In this document: positions 1,785-31,357 of the stretch, in pieces
How positions within the stretch are numbered: the first letter of the stretch is position 1
How the letters are laid out: each line of letters begins with the position of its first letter
DNA from: a virus
Virus record (IMG/VR): IMGVR_UViG_3300020390_000002
Location: 1 to 64,000 of that record
Reading direction: 5' to 3' (one strand)
Length of the DNA stretch: 64,000 nucleotides
Position numbers and translations under genes: made by a program
The notes under the pieces: model-generated
What the model saw: only the letters and a program-made list of their open reading frames with translations
Told to the model about the DNA's origin: nothing
Database searches by the model: none

Positions 1785-3023
1785 TTACAGCGAAATACCG
1801 GCCAGCGTGTGCTTGATGATCGGGAACTCGAACTCGAGCGGGTAACCCAGCGCGTCGGTCGCGTGTTCGGCGCCCGCCTGCTTGTCGATGTCGCGCGACC
1901 CCGGCTTGTAGATCGTCTGTTCGAGCGACTTGATGGTGTTCTTGCAGGACTCGTCGATATGCAGGCGCACCACACCGGAGGCGGTCTCCAGCAGCGAGTT
2001 GACCGCGTTCACGCGGTCGGCGATCGGCGGGTGCTTCTTGCGGTGCTTGATCTTCCTGAAGCCGGCCTGGCGGAACACGTCCAGATCGGACTCACCGCGC
2101 CCGGACTGTCGATAGCTGCCGGCCGGATCGGGGTAGATCGTGACGGCGTCCTGCCAGCGCCAGAACTTGCGATCGAGCGCCGCACAGACGTCGGCCGTGT
2201 TCGAACTCGGCAGATATATCTCGTCGACCACCCACAGCTCGCCGGAGGGCTGCGGCTGGATGATCACGCTCGACATCGGGTCGATGTTGAAGTCCTGCCC
2301 GACCCAGATCGGCAGACCCGGGTTGAAGGGGAACTTGCCGACGTGCTTGGTGCGATCGAACGGGTAGTAGACGCGCCCGGCCATCGACTCGAAGCTCGCC
2401 TCGTACTCCTGACGGAACGTCTTGGGGTCCAGCTCGTTGCGCGCGGCCTCGATCTCCTCCGGCGGCACGAACGGCGACTGTGACGTCGGGAACTGCCAGG
2501 ACTTCCACACGCCCGCCTGCTGGTAATCGCCGCGCTGGCCCATGCGGTAGTGGTCGTAGAGGATGTTGAAGCCCTTGGGCGTGCCCTGAATCAGCGCGCC
2601 GCCGCGGGTGGCCGACAGGGTCGGTCGGATGACCTTGCCCCAGACGTCGGGCTTCATGTCCTGGGCCTCGTCGAGGACCACGTAGTGCAGACCCACGCCG
2701 CGCAGGGTGTCAGGCTTGTCCGCGCCCTTGAGCTCGATCACCGAGCCGTTGATGAGCAGGATGCGCAGGCGCGTGTCGTTGATCTTCTTGATCCAGCGCC
2801 GCGGGATCGCGTCCTTGAGCTCTTCCCACATGATGTCGCGCGCCATCTGATAGGTCGGCGCGACATACCAGATGCGCTGCTTTTTCTTCTTGCCCGCCTT
2901 GTCGATCATGATCACGCGGGCCAAAAACGTCTTGCCGGATCGGCGCCCCGCCACCATCGTCTTGAATCGGTGCGGCGCAGAGTAGACCTCGAGCTGCTTG
3001 GGGTGCAGCGGCAGCGCAGGCAT
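1785..3023 (-). CDS. terL: Terminase large subunit
   Basis: Walker A AGRRSGKT, Walker B VVLDEAQD, coupling motif GTPKG, nuclease motifs GQDFNIDP and HATDALGY. Confidence 0.95.
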   Translation of the reverse strand: MPALPLHPKQLEVYSAPHRFKTMVAGRRSGKTFLARVIMIDKAGKKKKQRIWYVAPTYQMARDIMWEELKDAIPRRWIKKINDTRLRILLINGSVIELKGADKPDTLRGVGLHYVVLDEAQDMKPDVWGKVIRPTLSATRGGALIQGTPKGFNILYDHYRMGQRGDYQQAGVWKSWQFPTSQSPFVPPEEIEAARNELDPKTFRQEYEASFESMAGRVYYPFDRTKHVGKFPFNPGLPIWVGQDFNIDPMSSVIIQPQPSGELWVVDEIYLPSSNTADVCAALDRKFWRWQDAVTIYPDPAGSYRQSGRGESDLDVFRQAGFRKIKHRKKHPPIADRVNAVNSLLETASGVVRLHIDESCKNTIKSLEQTIYKPGSRDIDKQAGAEHATDALGYPLEFEFPIIKHTLAGISL

Positions 3024-3688: not shown

Positions 3689-4310
3689 TGGATTCCCAGA
3701 AAGCGGGGTCCATGCGGACCCCGAATACCCAGCGGAGGAGGAGAACGGACAACGGCTAACCGAAGCATTGTCCGGGCGGATTATATCGCGGAAGCGTGTT
3801 TACGTTCAATCAGCGCTGACTTACTTTGACAGCAGGGCGCTCCTGGCCGGTGCTCACGCTTCGATCGTCACGTGGGCCGTGTCCTCGTATCCCCTGCCCT
3901 CTGATCTACGCTCCTAGCGCTTCCTAGAGCGTCAAACGTCATCTGAATCCAGTGATTACACAATTTCCGTTTATGTGTGTCTTTTTTATTGTGTTTTCGC
4001 TATTGTTTATTGGTTCTGATTTCTGATGGCTGTTGTTATAAGATAGGGATCGGGTGTTATGAATTAAAAATCGCGAATTTCCTTTTAAAATCAACTGGCC
4101 AACGCAATTTACGGATTTTCATAACGGCAGTTTTCAAGGCATGTGCCTCAGAGCTCAGAAAGAGATCGATGAGACTCGCGGAATGGTGATCCAAACTGCC
4201 CCGACGCCGCGCGATAGTTTTTAGCTATCGTCATCATTACCCCGATCTATCACCCTCGCGGAGCGCGCTTCAGCACCCGCTGATGCCTGCGGCGTGCCGC
4301 GCGGCAAACC

Positions 4311-8950: not shown

Positions 8951-8973
8951 TTAAGTCAGTGCTGACTTACTAT
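8937..8973 (+). promoter_or_regulatory. Sigma70-like promoter with palindromic operator in spacer
   Basis: CCC-N5-TTGCAT-N17-TACTAT; TAAGTCAGTGCTGACTTA at 8952-8969, between divergent operons. Confidence 0.75.
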
Positions 8974-10696
8974 GACTGCACGTTTTATCACGAATGAGGC
9001 GCCACAGGCAACAGAAACCGTGAGCAGGATCATCCAAATAGCCCATAATGCGGTCAACGCGATGCTGGTTAAGCCAGACGAGGCCGTACAGCTAGAGGCT
9101 CAGCAGATGCTGAGCTATATGGTTGAGGGTGCAGAGCGTTCCGCGGCCTATCAGGCTGCCGAATGGGATGGTCGGTCGACGTTCTTCGACTTCCGCAACA
9201 ACGGTTTCCCCACTGGCTTCGTCGAGCTGGTCAAGCGTCGTCTGACCAAGCTCGGCTACGAGGTCAAGATCGTGCGCAAGCCCCTGCCGGCCGCGCTCGG
9301 CCCGACCCATCCGGTCGTTGACACGTTTGCGGTCGATCCCCGTTACGAGTATCAGCCGCGCACCGTGGATCTGCTGATCAAGCACGGCATGATGATCGCC
9401 CAGGTCGCCACCGGCGGCGGCAAGTCGCGCATCGCCAACCTGGCCACCGCGCGGATCAAGCGCCCCACCCTGTTCATCACCACCCGCTCGGTGCTCATGC
9501 ACCAGATGAAGGACGCCTTCGCGGCAGCCCTGAAGGTGCGGGCCGAGAACGGCGAGCCGGATCTGCGCAATGCCGAAGTTGGGGTCATGGGCGACAAGGA
9601 ATGGCGCCCGCGCGGCTATATCAACGTCGCGACCGTGCAGACCCTGGCCGCGCGGCTGCGCGAGCCCAATTTCGTGATCTCTTCGAAGAAGAAGGGCAAG
9701 GACGGCAAGCCGTTGAGCTCCGAAGAGCGCGAAGCCCTGGGCGTGGCGCAATACCGGCGCATGAAAAAGCGTCGCGAGGAGACCCTGCGGCTGCTGAGCC
9801 TGTTCCAGTTCGTGATCGCCGAGGAAGCCCATGAGGCCGGCGGCGACACCTTCTTCCAGATCATGCGCCACTGCACCCGCGCCCACTACCGGCTGGCGCT
9901 GACCGCGACGCCGTTCATGCGCGCGGACGCAGAATCGAACATGCGCCTGATGGCCTCCTGCGGGCCGATCGGCATCCGGATCACCGAGAAGCTGCTTATC
10001 GATCGCGGCATCCTCGCGACCCCGAGCTTTCGCACCATCGTGACCGGCTACGCGCCCGACAAGGACGCCCTCGCCCTCTACGAGAAACCCAAGCCCGGCA
10101 AGACGCGCATCTCGACGGTGCTGGGCAACACGTCCTCCTACCAGCGGGCCACCAAGCTCGGCATCGATTTCAACCTGGCGCGCAACCGCGCGATCGTCGG
10201 CGAGTGCGTGCGCGCGCGCCGCTACGGCCTGCCCGTGATCGTGCTCGTGAACCACACGGTCCACGGCAAGATCGTGCTGGCGATGCTGGAAGCGGCCGGC
10301 CTGAACGCGCAGTTCATCTGGGGCGACGACGACAGCGCTGCGCGCCGGGCTGCCCTGCTGGGCCTGGCCGGCGGCATGCTCGATGTCGTGATCGGCTCCA
10401 CGATCCTCGACGTGGGCGTCGATGTGCCCAGTGTCGGGATGATCATTCTGGCCGGCGGCGGCAAGGCTGAAGTGGCCCTGCGTCAGCGCATCGGCCGCGC
10501 GCTGCGCGAGAAGAAGGACGGCCGCCCCAATCGCGCCTTCATCGTCGACTTCGCCGACGACTTCAATATCCACCTGCGCCGGCACGCCATGACCCGACGC
10601 GCAATCGTCGCGGACACCCCCGGCTTCGTCGAGAACCAACTGCCTGTCGGGGCGGACTTCGACTTCACCGGCTTCGAATTACAGGAGATCGCATGA
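8972..10696 (+). CDS. SF2 DEAD/DEAH-like helicase
   Basis: ATGGGKS, variant motif II AEEAH, LTATP, DVGVDVP, QRIGRALR; true start may be GTG 9020. Confidence 0.92.
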   Translation: MTARFITNEAPQATETVSRIIQIAHNAVNAMLVKPDEAVQLEAQQMLSYMVEGAERSAAYQAAEWDGRSTFFDFRNNGFPTGFVELVKRRLTKLGYEVKIVRKPLPAALGPTHPVVDTFAVDPRYEYQPRTVDLLIKHGMMIAQVATGGGKSRIANLATARIKRPTLFITTRSVLMHQMKDAFAAALKVRAENGEPDLRNAEVGVMGDKEWRPRGYINVATVQTLAARLREPNFVISSKKKGKDGKPLSSEEREALGVAQYRRMKKRREETLRLLSLFQFVIAEEAHEAGGDTFFQIMRHCTRAHYRLALTATPFMRADAESNMRLMASCGPIGIRITEKLLIDRGILATPSFRTIVTGYAPDKDALALYEKPKPGKTRISTVLGNTSSYQRATKLGIDFNLARNRAIVGECVRARRYGLPVIVLVNHTVHGKIVLAMLEAAGLNAQFIWGDDDSAARRAALLGLAGGMLDVVIGSTILDVGVDVPSVGMIILAGGGKAEVALRQRIGRALREKKDGRPNRAFIVDFADDFNIHLRRHAMTRRAIVADTPGFVENQLPVGADFDFTGFELQEIA

Positions 10697-12323: not shown

Positions 12324-12586
12324 TTCTGAATGCAATGATCCTGGTGGCGGTTCTGGTGGGCGTGGCGACCGGGCACCCGGAAGCGCTGCTCGGCGCGCTG
12401 ATGCTGATCCCGATGCCGCACCCCGACATCACCTACCTCACCGAAGAGGCAGGCGTCGATGACGATTACCAGGTGACCGACGCCACCGGCTTCATCGGCT
12501 TCATCGACACCAACGATTACGAGGACGACTGGGAGGAAGACGACATAACCCAGCCGAATGTTGCGCGAGACACTGCACTACTATAA
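12308..12586 (+). CDS. Small membrane protein with acidic tail
   Basis: Two hydrophobic segments followed by D/E-rich tail. Confidence 0.55.
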   Translation: MRGVLILNAMILVAVLVGVATGHPEALLGALMLIPMPHPDITYLTEEAGVDDDYQVTDATGFIGFIDTNDYEDDWEEDDITQPNVARDTALL

Positions 12587-12589
12587 AAT
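12553..12589 (+). promoter_or_regulatory. Sigma70-like promoter
   Basis: GCC-N5-TTGCGC-N17-TAAAAT. Confidence 0.7.
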
Positions 12590-12629
12590 TAGTTCAGTTT
12601 CGAAAGCACAACAACGCAAGGAGTTCACA

Positions 12630-12899
12630 ATGGAAAAGAAGCGTATCAGCGTCACCTTCACCGAGGAAAGCCATGCCCGGATGAAGGAGATCAAGAAGGC
12701 CGCCGGCCTGTCCAGCCAGGACGCCGCGATCTCGATGATCATCGAGCATATCCCGCTGGATCAGGTCCGCGAGATGGGCGACAAGCATCGCGCCGAAGTC
12801 GAAGCTGACAAGCAGCGTCGCACCGATGCCCGGGCGCGATTCAACCAGCTGCCCGTCGAAGAGATGGAACGGCTGATGGCCCAGGCCGAAAGCAATTAA
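12630..12899 (+). CDS. Ribbon-helix-helix-like protein
   Basis: AAGGAG RBS; KRISVTFTEESHARMKEIKKAAGLSSQDAAISMII. Confidence 0.65.
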   Translation: MEKKRISVTFTEESHARMKEIKKAAGLSSQDAAISMIIEHIPLDQVREMGDKHRAEVEADKQRRTDARARFNQLPVEEMERLMAQAESN

Positions 12900-13828: not shown

Positions 13829-14032
13829 TCCATCCCCAGCACTGGATTTATCTTCACATTGCGCGATAATAGCTCAGTATTGAGCGAATAAATCCGATCG
13901 CGCGTCCTTATAGACGTTCGTATTAGATTCCTTCAATCAGCAAGTTATGGACGCTCGGTAAGCTCAATTTTAATTGTGTTAAAGCTGAAACTGCACACTT
14001 TCCGATAAATCACTAATAATGCAGGAGAACTG

Positions 14033-14470
14033 ATGTATACCGAGCTACACCTCACCGCCATGTTATCCGCTGACACGCCCACGGACGTGATCGACACGAT
14101 CAAGCGCATGACTGGCCAGTCCAACGATCCGATCCGCAAGCCGGACCATGCCCTGTTCCAGATTCCGGGCTGGGATTCGATGCTTCAGTCGGATTCGGCC
14201 CTGTTTGCTGGCATTACCTACAGCCGTATCGAGCAGCGCAACGCCAGCGGACGCTACGCCCTGTCGGTGCATTGCAATTTCCGCACCGAAGAGAAGTTGC
14301 CCGCCTTCCTGGAATGGATCTGGCAATACATCGACAGCGCGCCGGGCCGCTTCATCGGCTATCACCGCCGCGAGGGCGAGGCGGACCCCACCCTGATCTA
14401 CGTCCCCAAACCCGAAATGCTCGAGCCCAGCGAGGCGCTCGTCGAAGTGGACATGGCGGGCTACGAATGA
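14033..14470 (+). CDS. Hypothetical phage protein
   Basis: AGGAG RBS; MYTELHL...FLEWI..YI. Confidence 0.7.
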   Translation: MYTELHLTAMLSADTPTDVIDTIKRMTGQSNDPIRKPDHALFQIPGWDSMLQSDSALFAGITYSRIEQRNASGRYALSVHCNFRTEEKLPAFLEWIWQYIDSAPGRFIGYHRREGEADPTLIYVPKPEMLEPSEALVEVDMAGYE

Positions 14471-18676: not shown

Positions 18677-18886
18677 CTTTACGCTACCGATCGCACGTCG
18701 CTATGCTGGGCACGTGGGCGCCTTCCTTCCTTCGCATCCCTCGAACCAGGTGGCGCTCACGCCTTGCCAGCGGGGCGCCGCCAGGCGCCCCTGCTGGTCT
18801 TCTCGGCGGTCTGCGCTATCCCTGTACGGCCTGGGTCGAGATCGCGTTCCCTGACCCTCTTCCCGCTCGGATTTTCGGGCAATAGA

Positions 18887-19043
18887 CCCCTACCCCTCGA
18901 CCCCGTCACCCCTAGACCCTCAGCGAGTACGTTCTACGGGCTCAGGGCTGGGTGCTGGGGCGTGGGCGTGGGCGGTGGTGCAAGGCTGTGGGTGCTGGGG
19001 GCTGGGTGCTGGGGGCTGGGTGCTGGGTGCTGGGTGCTGGGGG
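18887..19043. repeat. C-run tract followed by (GCTGGGT/GCTGGGGG)n G-run repeat
   Basis: CCCC runs at 18887-18919; more than 10 GGG runs at 18945-19043. Confidence 0.9.
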
Positions 19044-19099
19044 CGTGCCTGTGCAAGGCTTGTCTCCGGGGTCCGCCGCTCCTGTGCAAGGCTGGTCTC
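18978..19099 (+). repeat. Three direct repeats with core GTGCAAGGCT
   Basis: 18978-18987, 19048-19066, 19081-19099; last two are CCTGTGCAAGGCT(T/G)GTCTC. Confidence 0.85.
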
Positions 19100-19241
19100 A
19101 CCCCTGGAAAAATACGGCGGCTGGGCGTAGCGATAGATGTATGCTACATCTAAGACTTTGCTTGTATGCTACACACAGTCATCCATCTGTATGTAGCGCG
19201 CATTCATGTGCTTGTGTGTTACATGCAGGAATGCAGTGCAC

Positions 19242-19275
19242 AAAAAAAGCGCGCTAGTCGTGAGACTAGCACGCT
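19242..19275 (-). terminator. Rho-independent terminator
   Basis: AGCGTGCTAGTC-TCAC-GACTAGCGCGC followed by T7 on minus strand. Confidence 0.85.
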
Positions 19276-19293
19276 GTGTGCTGCGCTCTACTA

Positions 19294-19560
19294 CTAGAGC
19301 GCTTCTAGTTCGAGCATGAGCATCTTGTGTGCACGGATCGCGCGCTGAGCGCGCTGGATCGCGTCCATGCTCATGCGATGCGTGCGCTTGTTCATGTAGC
19401 GAATCGAGCGCTTGCATGCGTCGATGAACGCGCGATCATCTGCGCGTCGCGATTCGCTGGATCGATTCGCGGAAAGCTTCAGATAAACGCGCATCGCGTC
19501 CACGTCCGCGCTATCGAATGCTTTATGTATTGCTTGCGGATTCATGCTGATTAGTTTCAT
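19294..19560 (-). CDS. Hypothetical basic protein with no Gly
   Basis: 88 aa; own promoter and terminator. Confidence 0.7.
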   Translation of the reverse strand: MKLISMNPQAIHKAFDSADVDAMRVYLKLSANRSSESRRADDRAFIDACKRSIRYMNKRTHRMSMDAIQRAQRAIRAHKMLMLELEAL

Positions 19561-19601
19561 TGTGCTGATTGTTTTAGTGTCATGCGATATTGCACGATTT
19601 A

Positions 19602-19638
19602 ATATTAGCACACTGTTTATGCTTGTGCGCATCTTGGC
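19602..19638 (-). promoter_or_regulatory. Promoter of the 88-aa gene
   Basis: GCC...TGnTAATAT; shares G(C/T)GCACAAGC...AGTGTG with the promoter at 20315-20342. Confidence 0.65.
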
Positions 19639-19653
19639 AAACTTTTTTTGCAC

Positions 19654-19682
19654 AAAAAAGCGCGCTCAAATGAGCGCGCTTT
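19654..19682 (-). terminator. Rho-independent terminator
   Basis: AGCGCGCTCA/TGAGCGCGCT hairpin plus T-run. Confidence 0.85.
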
Positions 19683-19698
19683 GTGACTCAGCGCTGAT

Positions 19699-20268
19699 TT
19701 ACTTATACAGCGCGACTAGAGCGACGATGAACGGATGCTTTCTGTCGAGCGTCCACGTGCGACGCTTCGCGTCTTTGTCCGTTTTCTGTTCCGTGACGCA
19801 TCCGAGCAGCTTCAGCATATTCATAAAGTAGATCGCTTGCGTGTCCGTCACGTGATTCATCTGCGCTTGAATCTCGCGATTGCTGAACGTTTTCTGACTA
19901 TGCTTCGCTTTGATATAGTGCAGTGCAGCGTCTGCTGCGTTGTCCTTCACGCTCGCGAGCGTCGCATTGACAGACAACGCTGTCATCATGCTTGTGAAGC
20001 GCTTCAGAAACTCGCGTGATTGACGCGCGACATGCGTCGGATTGATCGCGAAAGTCTCCATTGTCGCGAGCGCTTCATCGCTGCACTTTTCCATGCGTGC
20101 GATATACTGAGCATGCGTATCCGCAGTCTTTGCGAGCGCGTTGTCCTCCGGAGTCTGGAGCGCTGCATGCTTGTCGCGCGTCGCTTCGAACTCAGCGCGG
20201 ACACTTGCGAATGCTTCGCGAGCGTTCGAGACAAAAACGTTCGTGCTGTTGTTGTTCGTGCTATCCAT
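19699..20268 (-). CDS. Hypothetical protein, paralog of 30794-31357, putative C-terminal wHTH
   Basis: AAGGAAG RBS; shared ED..L.....THA, P..V...SREF.KR and H.T.TQA.Y......LG.V motifs. Confidence 0.8.
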   Translation of the reverse strand: MDSTNNNSTNVFVSNAREAFASVRAEFEATRDKHAALQTPEDNALAKTADTHAQYIARMEKCSDEALATMETFAINPTHVARQSREFLKRFTSMMTALSVNATLASVKDNAADAALHYIKAKHSQKTFSNREIQAQMNHVTDTQAIYFMNMLKLLGCVTEQKTDKDAKRRTWTLDRKHPFIVALVALYK

Positions 20269-20754
20269 GATCGTGCTTCCTTTGTAGTGTGCGTGGATGC
20301 TTTCCACAATTCAAACTATACACACTTTTTGCGCTTGTGCACGTTTTTCTGAAAAATATTTTGCATTGTTTTCTATCGTCGTTCGAAAAACGATAGTGCA
20401 AAACTATCGCTGTTCTATTCCTTCAAACACGCGCGAGCGCGCGCGAGTAGCACACTTTTCAAGATAGTGTCAATTTATTTTTGTAAATATTTTTCTTGCA
20501 CAATCCTGCAAAGCATGATCCAGATTCCTGCGCGCGTGCTCATAGTCCGCGCGCGGCGTCAACGATCGGCAGTGATTTATTTTCGCTGCGTGATACAGCG
20601 ATTTTCGTGTAGGATGCACGCATAATAGTTGTACTATACATGCACAATAGCTGCACTATGCAGACGATTTTCGGCGGCACGGCGGATGGCACGGCCTGGC
20701 GTGCGGCGAACGGCAGGCGCCGCGGCACGGCCCTTGGCCACAGCGCCGCGGGCA

Positions 20755-20780
20755 TGATCTGAGCCGCCTTATACCTATGG
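20755..20780 (+). repeat. 26-bp repeat, copy 1 (copy 2 at 22698-22723)
   Basis: TGATCTGAGCCGCCTTATA(C/T)CTATGG. Confidence 0.85.
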
Positions 20781-20911
20781 GCCGCCGCGGTGCCATAGGG
20801 GCCGCCTTATATGTATAGGCCGAGCCGATCCCTATAGGGGCCGCGGCAAGCCATAGGGCCGCGGCTGGGACGGCGACAAAAGAACGCTGCGGGGCGCGCA
20901 GCGTCCTGGGG

Positions 20912-21196
20912 TTATGGGTGCATGAACTCCTTGAACACGCGATCCAGAAAAGCGTGCGCTGCGCGCTCCTCATTGTCGTCCTGGTCGTCGGTGAGCGCGT
21001 CCTGAATCATCGGGGTCGCGATCAGCGAAACGAATCGCGCTTCCGCTTCGCTGCGCGTCCGACATGGCCGCGTCTGATGCAGCGCGCCATCTCTGTGACA
21101 GTCCACGCGGAATTGCGTCTGTCCGTCCTGAGACTGCTCGATCAGCATGATCGATTCGCTCGATTCGGTGAATTGCGCAATGATGTTTTCACTCAT
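20912..21196 (-). CDS. Hypothetical acidic protein
   Basis: Own promoter (21239-21275) and hairpin near 20885-20904. Confidence 0.7.
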   Translation of the reverse strand: MSENIIAQFTESSESIMLIEQSQDGQTQFRVDCHRDGALHQTRPCRTRSEAEARFVSLIATPMIQDALTDDQDDNEERAAHAFLDRVFKEFMHP

Positions 21197-21288
21197 GGGT
21201 TTTCTCGTTGTGCGTCAGTCCTAGCGCTGACGTAGATCATTATCGAATCCAGCACACGGCACTCCAACGATCGGCGATCATTCACCAC

Positions 21289-21350: not shown

Positions 21351-21651
21351 GTTGCCATGGGTCGCCGTGGGTCGCCGTGGCTAGGACACAACACAAAAGC
21401 GCAGCGGTGATCCGCTGCGCTCAATCGCTAGACTCCGATGCGTGTCAGTTCGATCAATCGCATGAGCGCTCGCTATCTGCGCGCTATGCTCGCGGCTCAA
21501 TGCGATTCGTGCCTTGGGCAGTTCAACCACATGGACTTGAGAAACGCTGAAGCCAGTCTTTTGGCAGGGTTGGTGCCGGGCCATCAGATTAGCGAAATAC
21601 GGATTTGCACCAACTGTCAGTCGAGGCTTGCGCATTAGGCTTTGAGTTGAA

Positions 21652-22048: not shown

Positions 22049-22357
22049 TCATTCCCACACGCTTTTCCGAATAGCCCCTGCGTCGAAGTCTGCATAGAGC
22101 GCGACGTGCGTGAATTCGCGCAGTTCGACGTCGAGCGCGAGCAGTTCGACAGAGAACTGTCCGTTGATGATGCCAACGAATGGATCGCTGAGCGCTCCGT
22201 GGTCGTAACTGAACGCTTTGTCTTCGCTGTCTTCGCTGATCGTGAAAGATTGCGTTGCGTCCTTGAGCGTGTCCGTGATCTGCGCATAGATGCTGTCGTT
22301 GAATGCGCTGTAGTGCTCGATGATGCTTTTGTCGCGTGCTGTGTTTTGTGTGTTCAT
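22049..22357 (-). CDS. Hypothetical acidic protein (GGB-poor gene)
   Basis: Promoter and operator at 22398-22434. Confidence 0.7.
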   Translation of the reverse strand: MNTQNTARDKSIIEHYSAFNDSIYAQITDTLKDATQSFTISEDSEDKAFSYDHGALSDPFVGIINGQFSVELLALDVELREFTHVALYADFDAGAIRKSVWE

Positions 22358-22792
22358 AGCTCTTTTCGTTGTTATCAGCGATTGTGCTGACAACTGAATA
22401 ATAGCTCAGCGCTGACTTAATGCACAGCAACGGCGAAAATTATTTTCGATTCACCAGGAGCGTGCAGTCGTATCCAGCCATGGCTGTGTCCAGCGTGCCG
22501 CGGCAGCACGGCACTTCGACACACGGCACGCGGCACTTTTGCTTCCCCGAAACAGTCGAAAACGGCTGTATTGGCACAAAACAGCCATGGGGAGCGAGCC
22601 ATGGCTGCCCGGTCGTCATGGGGAGTAAGCCATGGTCAGCCATGGCGTGCCGCACCCGTATCTGCCATGGCGACCCGGTCGCCACGGGGCTCGGTCTTGA
22701 TCTGAGCCGCCTTATATCTATGGCCGTGGTGAAACGCCAAGGCGGCTGCCTTATATAAATAGGCCCCGTCGTTCACCAACGGGGCCTGGGGC

Positions 22793-24075: not shown

Positions 24076-24544
24076 GTATTCGTCCTCGTTTTGGAGATTC
24101 CATTATTTGTCAGGCTTCCTGGCGCATAAACACTCGGCAGCAGGCGTTTTCTCAAGCCCCGAAAAATCCGACCCGGGGAAAAAGACGCTCGAAGGCGCAG
24201 ATAACTGCCGTGGCGTCCCCGCCGCGGCTTTATCCCACAAGGCATCCGCCGCGGTCGTACAACAAAGCCCGTGGTTCGATCCCGTGGGGCGCCTGCCGTG
24301 GCAGTTCCTTCACCGTTGCCGTTGCTTTCAACGCCGTCTGCCGTGCGATAAGATGAATCGAGCGTATTTGGACCCTGACCGAGCGCTCGCCACCCTGCCC
24401 CGTCCATCCCCGCCTCGAGCCACCCTTTGATAACCCTGGCCGTATCCCTTTGACCCGTGGCCCCGTATCCCGTGGGGTTGCCGCGGCGCTCTATCCACAA
24501 AAGACAGGCCCGGCATGGTGTCCGGGCCTGTGGCGCTATACGTT

Positions 24545-30793: not shown

Positions 30794-31357
30794 TCAGGCG
30801 GCGACTGCCTCCTTGCCCTTCTCGGCGATCGAAGCCATCGCCGGATTGTCGTAGTCGAAGGTCATCGTGGTCTCGATACCCTGGCCCCGGACGCTGGAGA
30901 CGCCGCCGAGTTCCATGAAGAAGGTCTTGATGTAGTTCGCCTGGGTCGCCGTCTTGTGCCCGGTGACGCGCATGATCTTGGCGTAGTCCAGCGTCGCCGG
31001 CTTCTTCGCCTCGATCAGCTCGATCACTGCGCGCAGCGGCTTGTCCGCCACCGCCTGCCGGAGACCCTTCGCGAACGCCACGATCGCCAAGCGCTTCTTG
31101 AACTCGCGCGAACCGGCTTCGACCTTCACCGGGTCGAGGTTGTTGCTCTCGCACCAGCCGATCGCATCGTCCGGCAGCTTGAACAGCACCTCCGCCATCT
31201 TCGCGTGGGTCTTGCTGGCGGATACGAGCTTCGCATCCTCCATGTCGCCGTGCGCCTCGAAGCGCGCCTGGGCTTCCTTCGCCGTGTTCAGACGACTCTT
31301 GATGGCGTCCTTCATGACCTTGCGGAACTTGGTGGTGTATTCATTCTTCTGCGTCAT
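30794..31357 (-). CDS. Hypothetical protein, paralog of 19699-20268
   Basis: GAGG RBS; terminator hairpin at 30766-30787. Confidence 0.8.
   Translation of the reverse strand: MTQKNEYTTKFRKVMKDAIKSRLNTAKEAQARFEAHGDMEDAKLVSASKTHAKMAEVLFKLPDDAIGWCESNNLDPVKVEAGSREFKKRLAIVAFAKGLRQAVADKPLRAVIELIEAKKPATLDYAKIMRVTGHKTATQANYIKTFFMELGGVSSVRGQGIETTMTFDYDNPAMASIAEKGKEAVAA

Follow-up and report, generated by a model that had tools for sequence, protein, structure and literature searches.

Why should a phage genome of 62% GC contain a stretch of more than one kilobase in which GG is followed, with one exception, only by A and CC is preceded only by T? This question is raised by a block at positions 19128-20554 of the IMG/VR virus record IMGVR_UViG_3300020390_000002, a single contig of 91,335 bp which is classed as linear and estimated to be 83% complete. 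The window analysed here is the first 64 kb (64,000 nucleotides) of this record. We call the word missing from the block GGB/VCC, that is GG[CGT] or [ACG]CC, both strands being counted. The block carries two genes, here called gene A and gene B, with their control signals. The reading that we favour, to which we give a probability of about 0.45, is that it forms a stealth cassette of immediate-early genes, out of reach of a factor that reads GG[CGT] on DNA.

The block is almost devoid of GGB/VCC

In the 1427 bp of the block (GC content of 0.50) we counted a single GG[CGT], a GGC at 19636, and no [ACG]CC. GGC (present once), GGG and GGT are each purged, and both strands are empty to an equal degree. 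GGA occurs 12 times and TCC 23 times (35 in sum), a density of 24.5 per kb as compared with 26 per kb for the genome; we looked for a rule in the bases flanking the tolerated GGA and found none in the block. An earlier reading of this DNA from its letters, referred to below as the initial annotation, had claimed one GGB/VCC and about 35 GGA/TCC, and the exact count agrees with it. It had also put the number of GGB/VCC expected by chance at about 100; the strong deficit stands, but this figure was conservative, since 2000 mononucleotide shuffles of the block gave a mean of 131.6 sites (standard deviation 9.9, minimum 94) and the density of the genome predicts about 172.

The GC content had been said to be kept up through CG/GC dinucleotides and, indeed, it is carried by CGC/GCG (3.5 times the expected number), GCA/TGC (2.1 times) and AGC/GCT (1.9 times). 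The longest gaps between sites in the window measure 919 bp (19636-20555) and 512 bp (19124-19636), for a mean gap of 8.3 bp. A sliding-window scan of the whole genome, as the initial annotation had proposed, detected no 300-bp window without a site elsewhere in the 91,335 bp, and the block is thus unique. The deficit is real, extreme and kept by selection.

The ban bears on nucleic acid and distinguishes the third base

The synonymous codons of the two genes of the block were resampled with the genome's own codon usage. In gene A we observed no GGB/VCC where 54.2 ± 5.7 were expected, and 17 GGA/TCC where 17.8 were expected. Gene B gave the same picture, with 0 GGB/VCC vs 19.3 ± 3.7 expected and 8 GGA/TCC vs 9.9 expected. 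In addition, the genome provides an internal control outside the block:

30794..31357, minus strand: paralogue of gene A without the constraint (identity 28%, E = 7e-11)

By the same resampling, this paralogue contains 64 GGB/VCC vs 70.6 expected and 16 GGA/TCC vs 15.1 expected. Gene A has 1 Gly (encoded by GGA), 3 Pro and 1 Trp, and not one GCC or ACC codon; its paralogue has 10 Gly, 8 GCC and 8 ACC. Because the deficit is found at synonymous sites and the paralogue in the same genome is normal, we conclude that the target of the ban is nucleic acid and that the third base decides; residues of Gly, Pro and Trp have been removed too, and GGA is selectively neutral in this phage. The constraint had been proposed in the initial annotation to bear on DNA and not on protein. 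This is borne out, since promoters, leaders, terminators and trailer are covered by the ban, about 54 sites expected at synonymous positions are gone from gene A and the paralogue is unconstrained. A cause at the level of tRNAs or codons was rejected because the ban spans codon junctions and non-coding DNA.

The block is composed of two units with their own signals

The block is made of two minus-strand units, each with its own intrinsic terminator, and contains the following features:

19128..20554, both strands: GGB/VCC-free block, with 1 site and with GGA/TCC at normal density
20315..20343, minus strand: candidate sigma-70-type promoter of gene A, read by eye (-10 TATAGT at 20320-20315, TG just upstream, TGCACA-like -35)
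19699..20268, minus strand: gene A, 189 amino acids, helical hairpin and predicted winged helix; the one gene that the cassette keeps in all relatives
19653..19680, minus strand: intrinsic terminator of gene A, read by eye and absent from the scan list (palindromic AGCGCGCT stem, 6-nucleotide loop, T6)
19602..19638, minus strand: candidate promoter of gene B, read by eye (GCC-N5-GCGCAC-N17-TAATAT, with GCGCAC as -35-like element and TAATAT as -10)
19294..19560, minus strand: gene B, 88-amino-acid basic helical protein without Gly or Trp; no homologue in the blocks of relatives
19248..19275, minus strand: intrinsic terminator of gene B, called by the scan (12-bp stem, T7)
19149..19160, minus strand: boundary motif CAAAGTCTTAGA, found once in the genome

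A consensus promoter scan of 18800-21000 called no promoter. The by-eye promoter of gene A is supported by the relatives, which have CGCTTGCA-N17-TAnAAT elements at the place where it sits. The signals themselves respect the ban: the Shine-Dalgarno sequence of gene A, AAGGAAG, is built on the tolerated GGA, and the terminator stems contain neither GG nor CC and are made of GCGC only. The sole banned word of the block is a GCC on the coding strand at 19638-19636 (GGC on the plus strand), 5 bases upstream of the -35 of gene B. Promoters of one class are found throughout the genome, and the word matches a fixed upstream position in them; the list of this class was picked by its own pattern, so that its statistics are circular. 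The ban extends beyond the units, about 215 bp upstream of the promoter of gene A and about 110 bp past the last terminator.

Gene B lacks a Shine-Dalgarno sequence. A 9-codon open reading frame lies just upstream (19558-19583, minus strand) and its TGA overlaps the ATG of gene B (ATGA), so that gene B may be translated by coupling to it.

Homologues of gene A lie in similar blocks in other phages

By tblastn, all matches to gene A fell in Pseudomonas syringae phages that belong to the genus Nickievirus, with 34-37% identity, and a megablast/blastn search with the region against cultured phages gave no match. Scans of viral and metagenome contigs with the single protein and with a small alignment detected no closer relative, apart from one contig, L013, described below. 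In two of the Nickievirus phages, ZY21 and nickie, the homologue is located inside the one long stretch of the genome that is free of any GG/CC; in nickie this stretch is 1137 bp long vs a mean gap of 7.6 bp. The layout in nickie is the same as here, with a promoter, the gene A homologue, a terminator, a second small unannotated open reading frame and a terminator, flanked on both sides by GG-rich repeat spacers. The two phages thus share the gene family, the two-unit architecture and the flanking spacers, but in the present phage GGA/TCC is fully tolerated and a normal paralogue is present in the same genome. The third-base rule, the in-genome paralogue control and the conserved boundary elements are what is new in this phage.

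In nickie, the gene A homologue gp019 contains 0 GG/CC vs 55 ± 6 expected from synonymous resampling. Orthologues of the nickie type differ at 121-135 of 555 nucleotides, and none of these changes has created a GG or a CC. A full HMMER search yielded 24 representatives of the family, 9 of which are almost without Gly, Pro and Trp while the other 15 are mostly ordinary. Eight of these 9 have none of the three residues or a single Pro, and the ninth is the gene A product of the present phage. When the IMG/VR loci were fetched, the homologue was found in a GG/CC-free block of 0.66-1.5 kb in 8 out of 9. The contig L013 (80 kb, 50% GC) has two copies, an ordinary one and a second one in a 674-bp block with 1 GGB/VCC and 30 GGA/TCC; this second copy shares the GGB-only flavour of the present phage. 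On the tree, the grouping of the two GGB-type proteins is weak (support 71/62). Members that have Gly, Pro and Trp are scattered among members that do not, two such pairs being well supported, which implies that the state was switched repeatedly or that pairs of paralogues arose repeatedly.

The constancy of the cassette is limited to gene A, the downstream gene varying from one locus to another, and the ban is kept across 30-80% protein identity and in genomes of 48-62% GC. In the GG-free loci, GAGAGA replaces the normal Shine-Dalgarno sequence. Five exceptions were found in the blocks of relatives, and these include two GGA, one of them in a Shine-Dalgarno sequence, and one AAGGTG Shine-Dalgarno sequence. 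From these exceptions, GGA looks like the least harmful word across lineages; in the present phage it is harmless. We also observed, in the relative Nican01 (PP179318, 105106-105673, locus L023), genes for tRNA-Gly and tRNA-Trp among five tRNAs; the first gene of this phage uses neither amino acid.

The edge of the block is conserved as well. In nickie (105063) and in five IMG/VR relatives (among loci L006-L011), the GG-free block ends with the word (T)TGTCAAAGTCTTAGA, which occurs a single time in each genome and is far better conserved than the DNA around it. The boundary motif, also written TTGTCAAAGTCTTAGA, is a candidate operator, promoter, repeat boundary or packaging site. The contigs of two relatives end 250-640 bp upstream of the block; we rejected these ends as evidence for physical termini, because the 127-bp end repeat of one relative is a k-mer assembly overlap.

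Gene A probably encodes a winged-helix protein

Genes A and B and their neighbours had no match past the cut-off in Pfam or PHROG, and the profile of gene A had none among the sequences of the PDB. We therefore rely on a structural model of the gene A product, made by AlphaFold (AF2) with an alignment of 18 sequences and a predicted local distance difference test score (pLDDT) of 95.2. In this model, a long N-terminal helical hairpin (residues 1-75) precedes a C-terminal domain, which resembles winged helices of the MarR/SarA/ArsR/TubR type (Foldseek probability 0.94-1.0, E of about 0.1, residues ~90-189). With VIA, we obtained Z ~7 and a root-mean-square deviation of 2.8 Å over ~80 residues to SarS/SarA/TubR, values which are within the background for helical models. 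From the model, the protein is probably a winged-helix protein and a regulator. Its invariant residues in the family are H52, R85, E86, H139, T141 and Q144.

A cassette that may escape a reader of DNA

The reading of the block as a stealth immediate-early cassette would run as follows. With two sigma-70-type units and a constant gene for a probable regulator, the cassette would be autonomous and probably immediate-early. Long-term purifying selection keeps it clear of one short word, GG/CC in Nickievirus-type relatives and GGB/VCC here and in one other lineage, and the genes pay for this with an altered codon choice and with residues of Gly, Pro and Trp. The most likely cause would be a protein factor that reads the word on double-stranded DNA and is active before any phage counter-measure. 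This factor could be a nuclease or a binding or silencing factor, from the host or carried in the virion. A word-free cassette would be neither hit nor blocked, and the first phage protein would always be made. We infer here the early timing, the action on DNA and not on RNA, and the escape function.

Two observations support this reading. Firstly, the specificity differs between lineages, which points to a protein reader and not to the physics of DNA. Secondly, both this phage and nickie purge palindromes genome-wide, suggesting that they already deal with enzymes that read DNA by avoiding motifs. Indeed, the 6-bp palindromes ACATGT, ACCGGT, ACGCGT, AGGCCT, GATATC, GGATCC and GGGCCC have 0 copies in the present genome; for ACCGGT, AGGCCT and GGGCCC, 13-22 copies each were expected. 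In nickie, AGGCCT, CCATGG, GGATCC, GGGCCC and GGTACC are at 0 copies, as are CAGCTG (vs ~74-87 expected) and CTCGAG, CTGCAG and GAGCTC (vs ~50). The cost of each site may fall on the expression of the unit, by block, nick or silencing, and not on the survival of the genome, because the effect is local and graded and the neighbouring genes are leaky. Alternatively, this part of the DNA may be the only one exposed at first.

Several points weigh against an escape from such a reader. No protein reader was identified. A cut elsewhere in the GG-rich genome would be equally lethal, so that staged DNA entry or a slow or local effect would be required. The block is flanked by GG-dense spacers and, in nickie, its distance from the terminase gene is about 15 kb. 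The case for early expression depends on by-eye promoters, none of which was called in the consensus scan. Finally, in the first 100 kb of SSU5, the closest cultured phage by terminase, there is no GG/CC-free block and the longest gap is 154 bp.

In a broader form, which we put forward tentatively and consider doubtful, the GG/CC- and GGB-free early cassettes would be the footprint of an undescribed and widespread DNA-level reader of GG steps, with a third-base specificity depending on the lineage. If true, this reader would be a new bacterial immunity or a weapon of phage takeover, against which phages write their first gene without the word.

Other explanations of the ban

The main rival is a safe zone left by the phage's own DNA modification. 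In the virion DNA, GG(B) or its complement would be bulkily modified, and the unaided host RNA polymerase would need the first genes free of the modification. We consider it unlikely. In its favour, an operon encoding two ParB_N proteins and an ABC ATPase (8950-6803) lies beside the terminase gene and nickie has one too. Iyer et al. reportedly described, in 2013, a ParB-ABC ATPase-acyltransferase module predicted to modify DNA. However, by Pfam we found no methyltransferase or acetyltransferase domain in the operon, whose last gene, of 300 amino acids, has no Pfam match. It is also true that phage base-modifying enzymes do use motifs of 2-3 nucleotides, DpdA of phage CAjan inserting preQ0 at GA and GGC (PMC7544227), and that a graded local cost per site suits the leaky neighbouring genes. 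But a 7-deazaguanine pathway of the DpdA type was rejected, since TGT/DpdA (PF01702) is absent from this genome (83% complete), from nickie (complete) and from four relatives (three of them 100% complete). Moreover, the palindromes holding the banned word are still purged, which would be needless if the sites were masked. Their counts suggest that GG-containing palindromes are exposed to restriction enzymes, and this genome-wide purge argues against a protective modification at GG. The other early-looking genes are all full of GGB.

It is quite improbable that the ban is read on RNA, transcripts avoiding GG/CC because of an endoribonuclease, Rho, ribosome pausing or a GGA-binding repressor. 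The block of nickie nearly coincides with the transcription units, as this explanation would have it: its start lies about 30 bp upstream of the -35 and its end about 60 bp past the last hairpin. But in the present phage the DNA before the promoter of gene A and after the last terminator is clean too, and one RNA reader does not explain the equal absence of GG and CC. In addition, GGAGGA, a full Shine-Dalgarno-like sequence, is found inside gene A and GGA is neutral, so that avoidance of Shine-Dalgarno-like sequences or of RsmA/CsrA fails.

Could the winged-helix protein itself be the reader? It would bind GG DNA broadly, for instance to silence the host, and keep its own gene free of sites. 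Gene A is the sole constant gene of the blocks in the clade, the predicted fold is a DNA-binding one with a helical hairpin that could oligomerise, and the protein could bind at the clusters of CCGCGG seen in both phages in the flanking spacers. Yet the motifs SRExKKR and HxTxTQAxY are alike in GG-ban, GGB-ban and unconstrained copies, the putative recognition helix HxTxTQAxY being near-invariant among them, and the putative recognition surface therefore does not track the banned word. The remaining phage genome would be silenced as well, and we regard this possibility as very unlikely.

Avoidance of the protospacer adjacent motifs (PAMs) of CRISPR systems, CC for type I-F or NGG for Cas9, in the DNA exposed first was considered a poor fit in the initial annotation, and we come to the same view. 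GG/CC is exactly the I-F PAM, Pseudomonas commonly carries type I-F, a genome-wide depletion of CC in P. aeruginosa phages has been published (PMC12174588), and a full GG/CC ban of the nickie type fits. However, TCC/GGA is neutral here, whereas for type I-F in Zymomonas every NCC, TCC included, is a full PAM (PMC6868425). Targeting elsewhere in the genome also stays possible, and this explanation appears highly improbable.

It is scarcely credible that the block is a relic of composition, such as an island of foreign origin or the product of a local bias in mutation, without present function: its GC content is 0.50 vs 0.62 for the genome, but the ban has survived the divergence described above, with over 120 substitutions for each pair of orthologues, it stops sharply at unit boundaries, it is strand-symmetric, and on the tree family members that have Gly, Pro and Trp are mixed with those that do not. 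Physical explanations were rejected on arguments from established chemistry: oxidation hot spots at GG, for which GGA is expected to be no less reactive than GGC/GGT, contrary to the ban; A-philic steps, AC/GT not being avoided in the block; and Z-DNA, AA/TT being abundant there. Also rejected, for the block, was classical restriction-site avoidance, since a 3-letter non-palindromic class is banned and no known set of sites removes every GGB.

Comparison with known systems

Davison and Brunel reportedly described in 1979 that the first-step-transfer (pre-early) DNA of T5 is without EcoRI sites, which are present in the remaining genome. The block would resemble it in several respects: a short and probably early-expressed section of a large siphovirus genome lacks a word that is used freely elsewhere (here 1 vs ~172), its promoters look strong and of host type, and its genes are small and have no assigned function. 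PhageTerm reportedly gave long direct terminal repeats, which T5 also has, for Nican01, also a Nickievirus (PMC11256456, Table 2). The difference lies in the word, which has 3 letters here and 2 in the relatives vs a 6-bp site in T5, so that proteins are rewritten. No homologue of the T5 pre-early genes A1, A2 and dmp was detected by PHROG or Pfam among genes A, B and their neighbours.

The chlorella-virus enzymes Nt.CviPII and M.CviPII act at CCD. Together with DpdA they are viral enzymes with a partly degenerate specificity of 2-3 letters, and "not A after GG" would be such a rule; in CCD, though, the degenerate base is on the other side of CC. Neither a nickase nor a methyltransferase was identified in the present phage.

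Restriction avoidance and PAM depletion (PMC4246573, PMC12174588) resemble the ban in that selection removes a short word read by a defence protein, and this genome too purges many 6-bp palindromes. But these effects are genome-wide and partial, whereas that of the block is local and total, and its word, VCC without TCC, does not match the I-F PAM. In the literature we found genome-wide PAM depletion and restriction avoidance but no description of local dinucleotide-free blocks, Nickievirus included. Motif avoidance is known for restriction sites of 4-8 bp and, weakly and genome-wide, for PAMs, so that a far stronger signal is given by a total local ban of 2-3 letters, under which proteins have lost glycine, proline and tryptophan. 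Such a ban would imply a reader of very short specificity acting at the very start of infection. The distinction of GGA from GGC, GGG and GGT suits a protein that reads the neighbouring base, excluded for example by the thymine methyl of TCC. The third-base rule is at odds with the known I-F PAM and with the chemistry of DNA oxidation, and the specificity varies between related phages, some of which, nickie and ZY21, are cultured on Pseudomonas syringae.

Neighbouring depletions, dense spacers and genome context

Partial depletions had been claimed in the initial annotation at about 20921-21240, 21381-21500 and 22081-22430, and all three hold on counting, with respectively 11 GGB/VCC vs 38.6 expected, 2 vs 14.5 and 2 vs 42.2. 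In the non-coding spacers between the depleted stretches, GGB/VCC is enriched about twofold. The features of this region are:

18677..19127, both strands: non-coding spacer past the block, dense in GGB (102 sites where 54 were expected) and carrying CTGGGTG/CTGGGGG repeats
20673..20920, both strands: non-coding spacer ahead of the block, dense in GGB (58 sites where 30 were expected) and carrying five CCGCGG within 140 bp, as in the spacers of nickie
20912..21196, minus strand: small gene, partly depleted (the 11 vs 38.6 over 20921-21240)
22076..22432, minus strand: second, leaky GGB-poor unit, comprising a gene of 102-114 amino acids (22049-22393) and its promoter (2 sites vs ~43 between the bounding sites)

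The gene at 22049-22393 contains 6 GGB/VCC vs 25.5 expected from synonymous resampling.

The large terminase is encoded by a gene of 412 amino acids at 1785-3023 (minus strand; Terminase_6N). It has 64% identity to that of SSU5 and 59% to those of Nickievirus, which places the phage among SSU5-like siphoviruses and phage-plasmids. The gene order agrees with that of nickie, and by synteny with it the gene of 574 amino acids at 8972-10696 (plus strand) probably encodes a DEAD-box helicase.

Within the spacer past the block, the CTGGGTG/CTGGGGG array at 18940-19040 resembles E. coli Chi, GCTGGTGG, plus one extra G, and in its orientation it would face an enzyme arriving from the side of the block. 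Clusters of CCGCGG, often as GCCGCGGC, are found in the GG-rich spacers of the window at 20720-20859, 22498 and 24222-24481. In nickie they are found at 101037-101378 and 103376-103546, between small early-looking genes as in the present phage. These clusters are candidate binding-site arrays for a phage protein. Finally, short GGB-poor and AT-rich stretches of 100-200 bp occur at promoter-like sites of the plus strand (13835-14039, 12553-12654 and 3897-4012); they are far shorter than the block.

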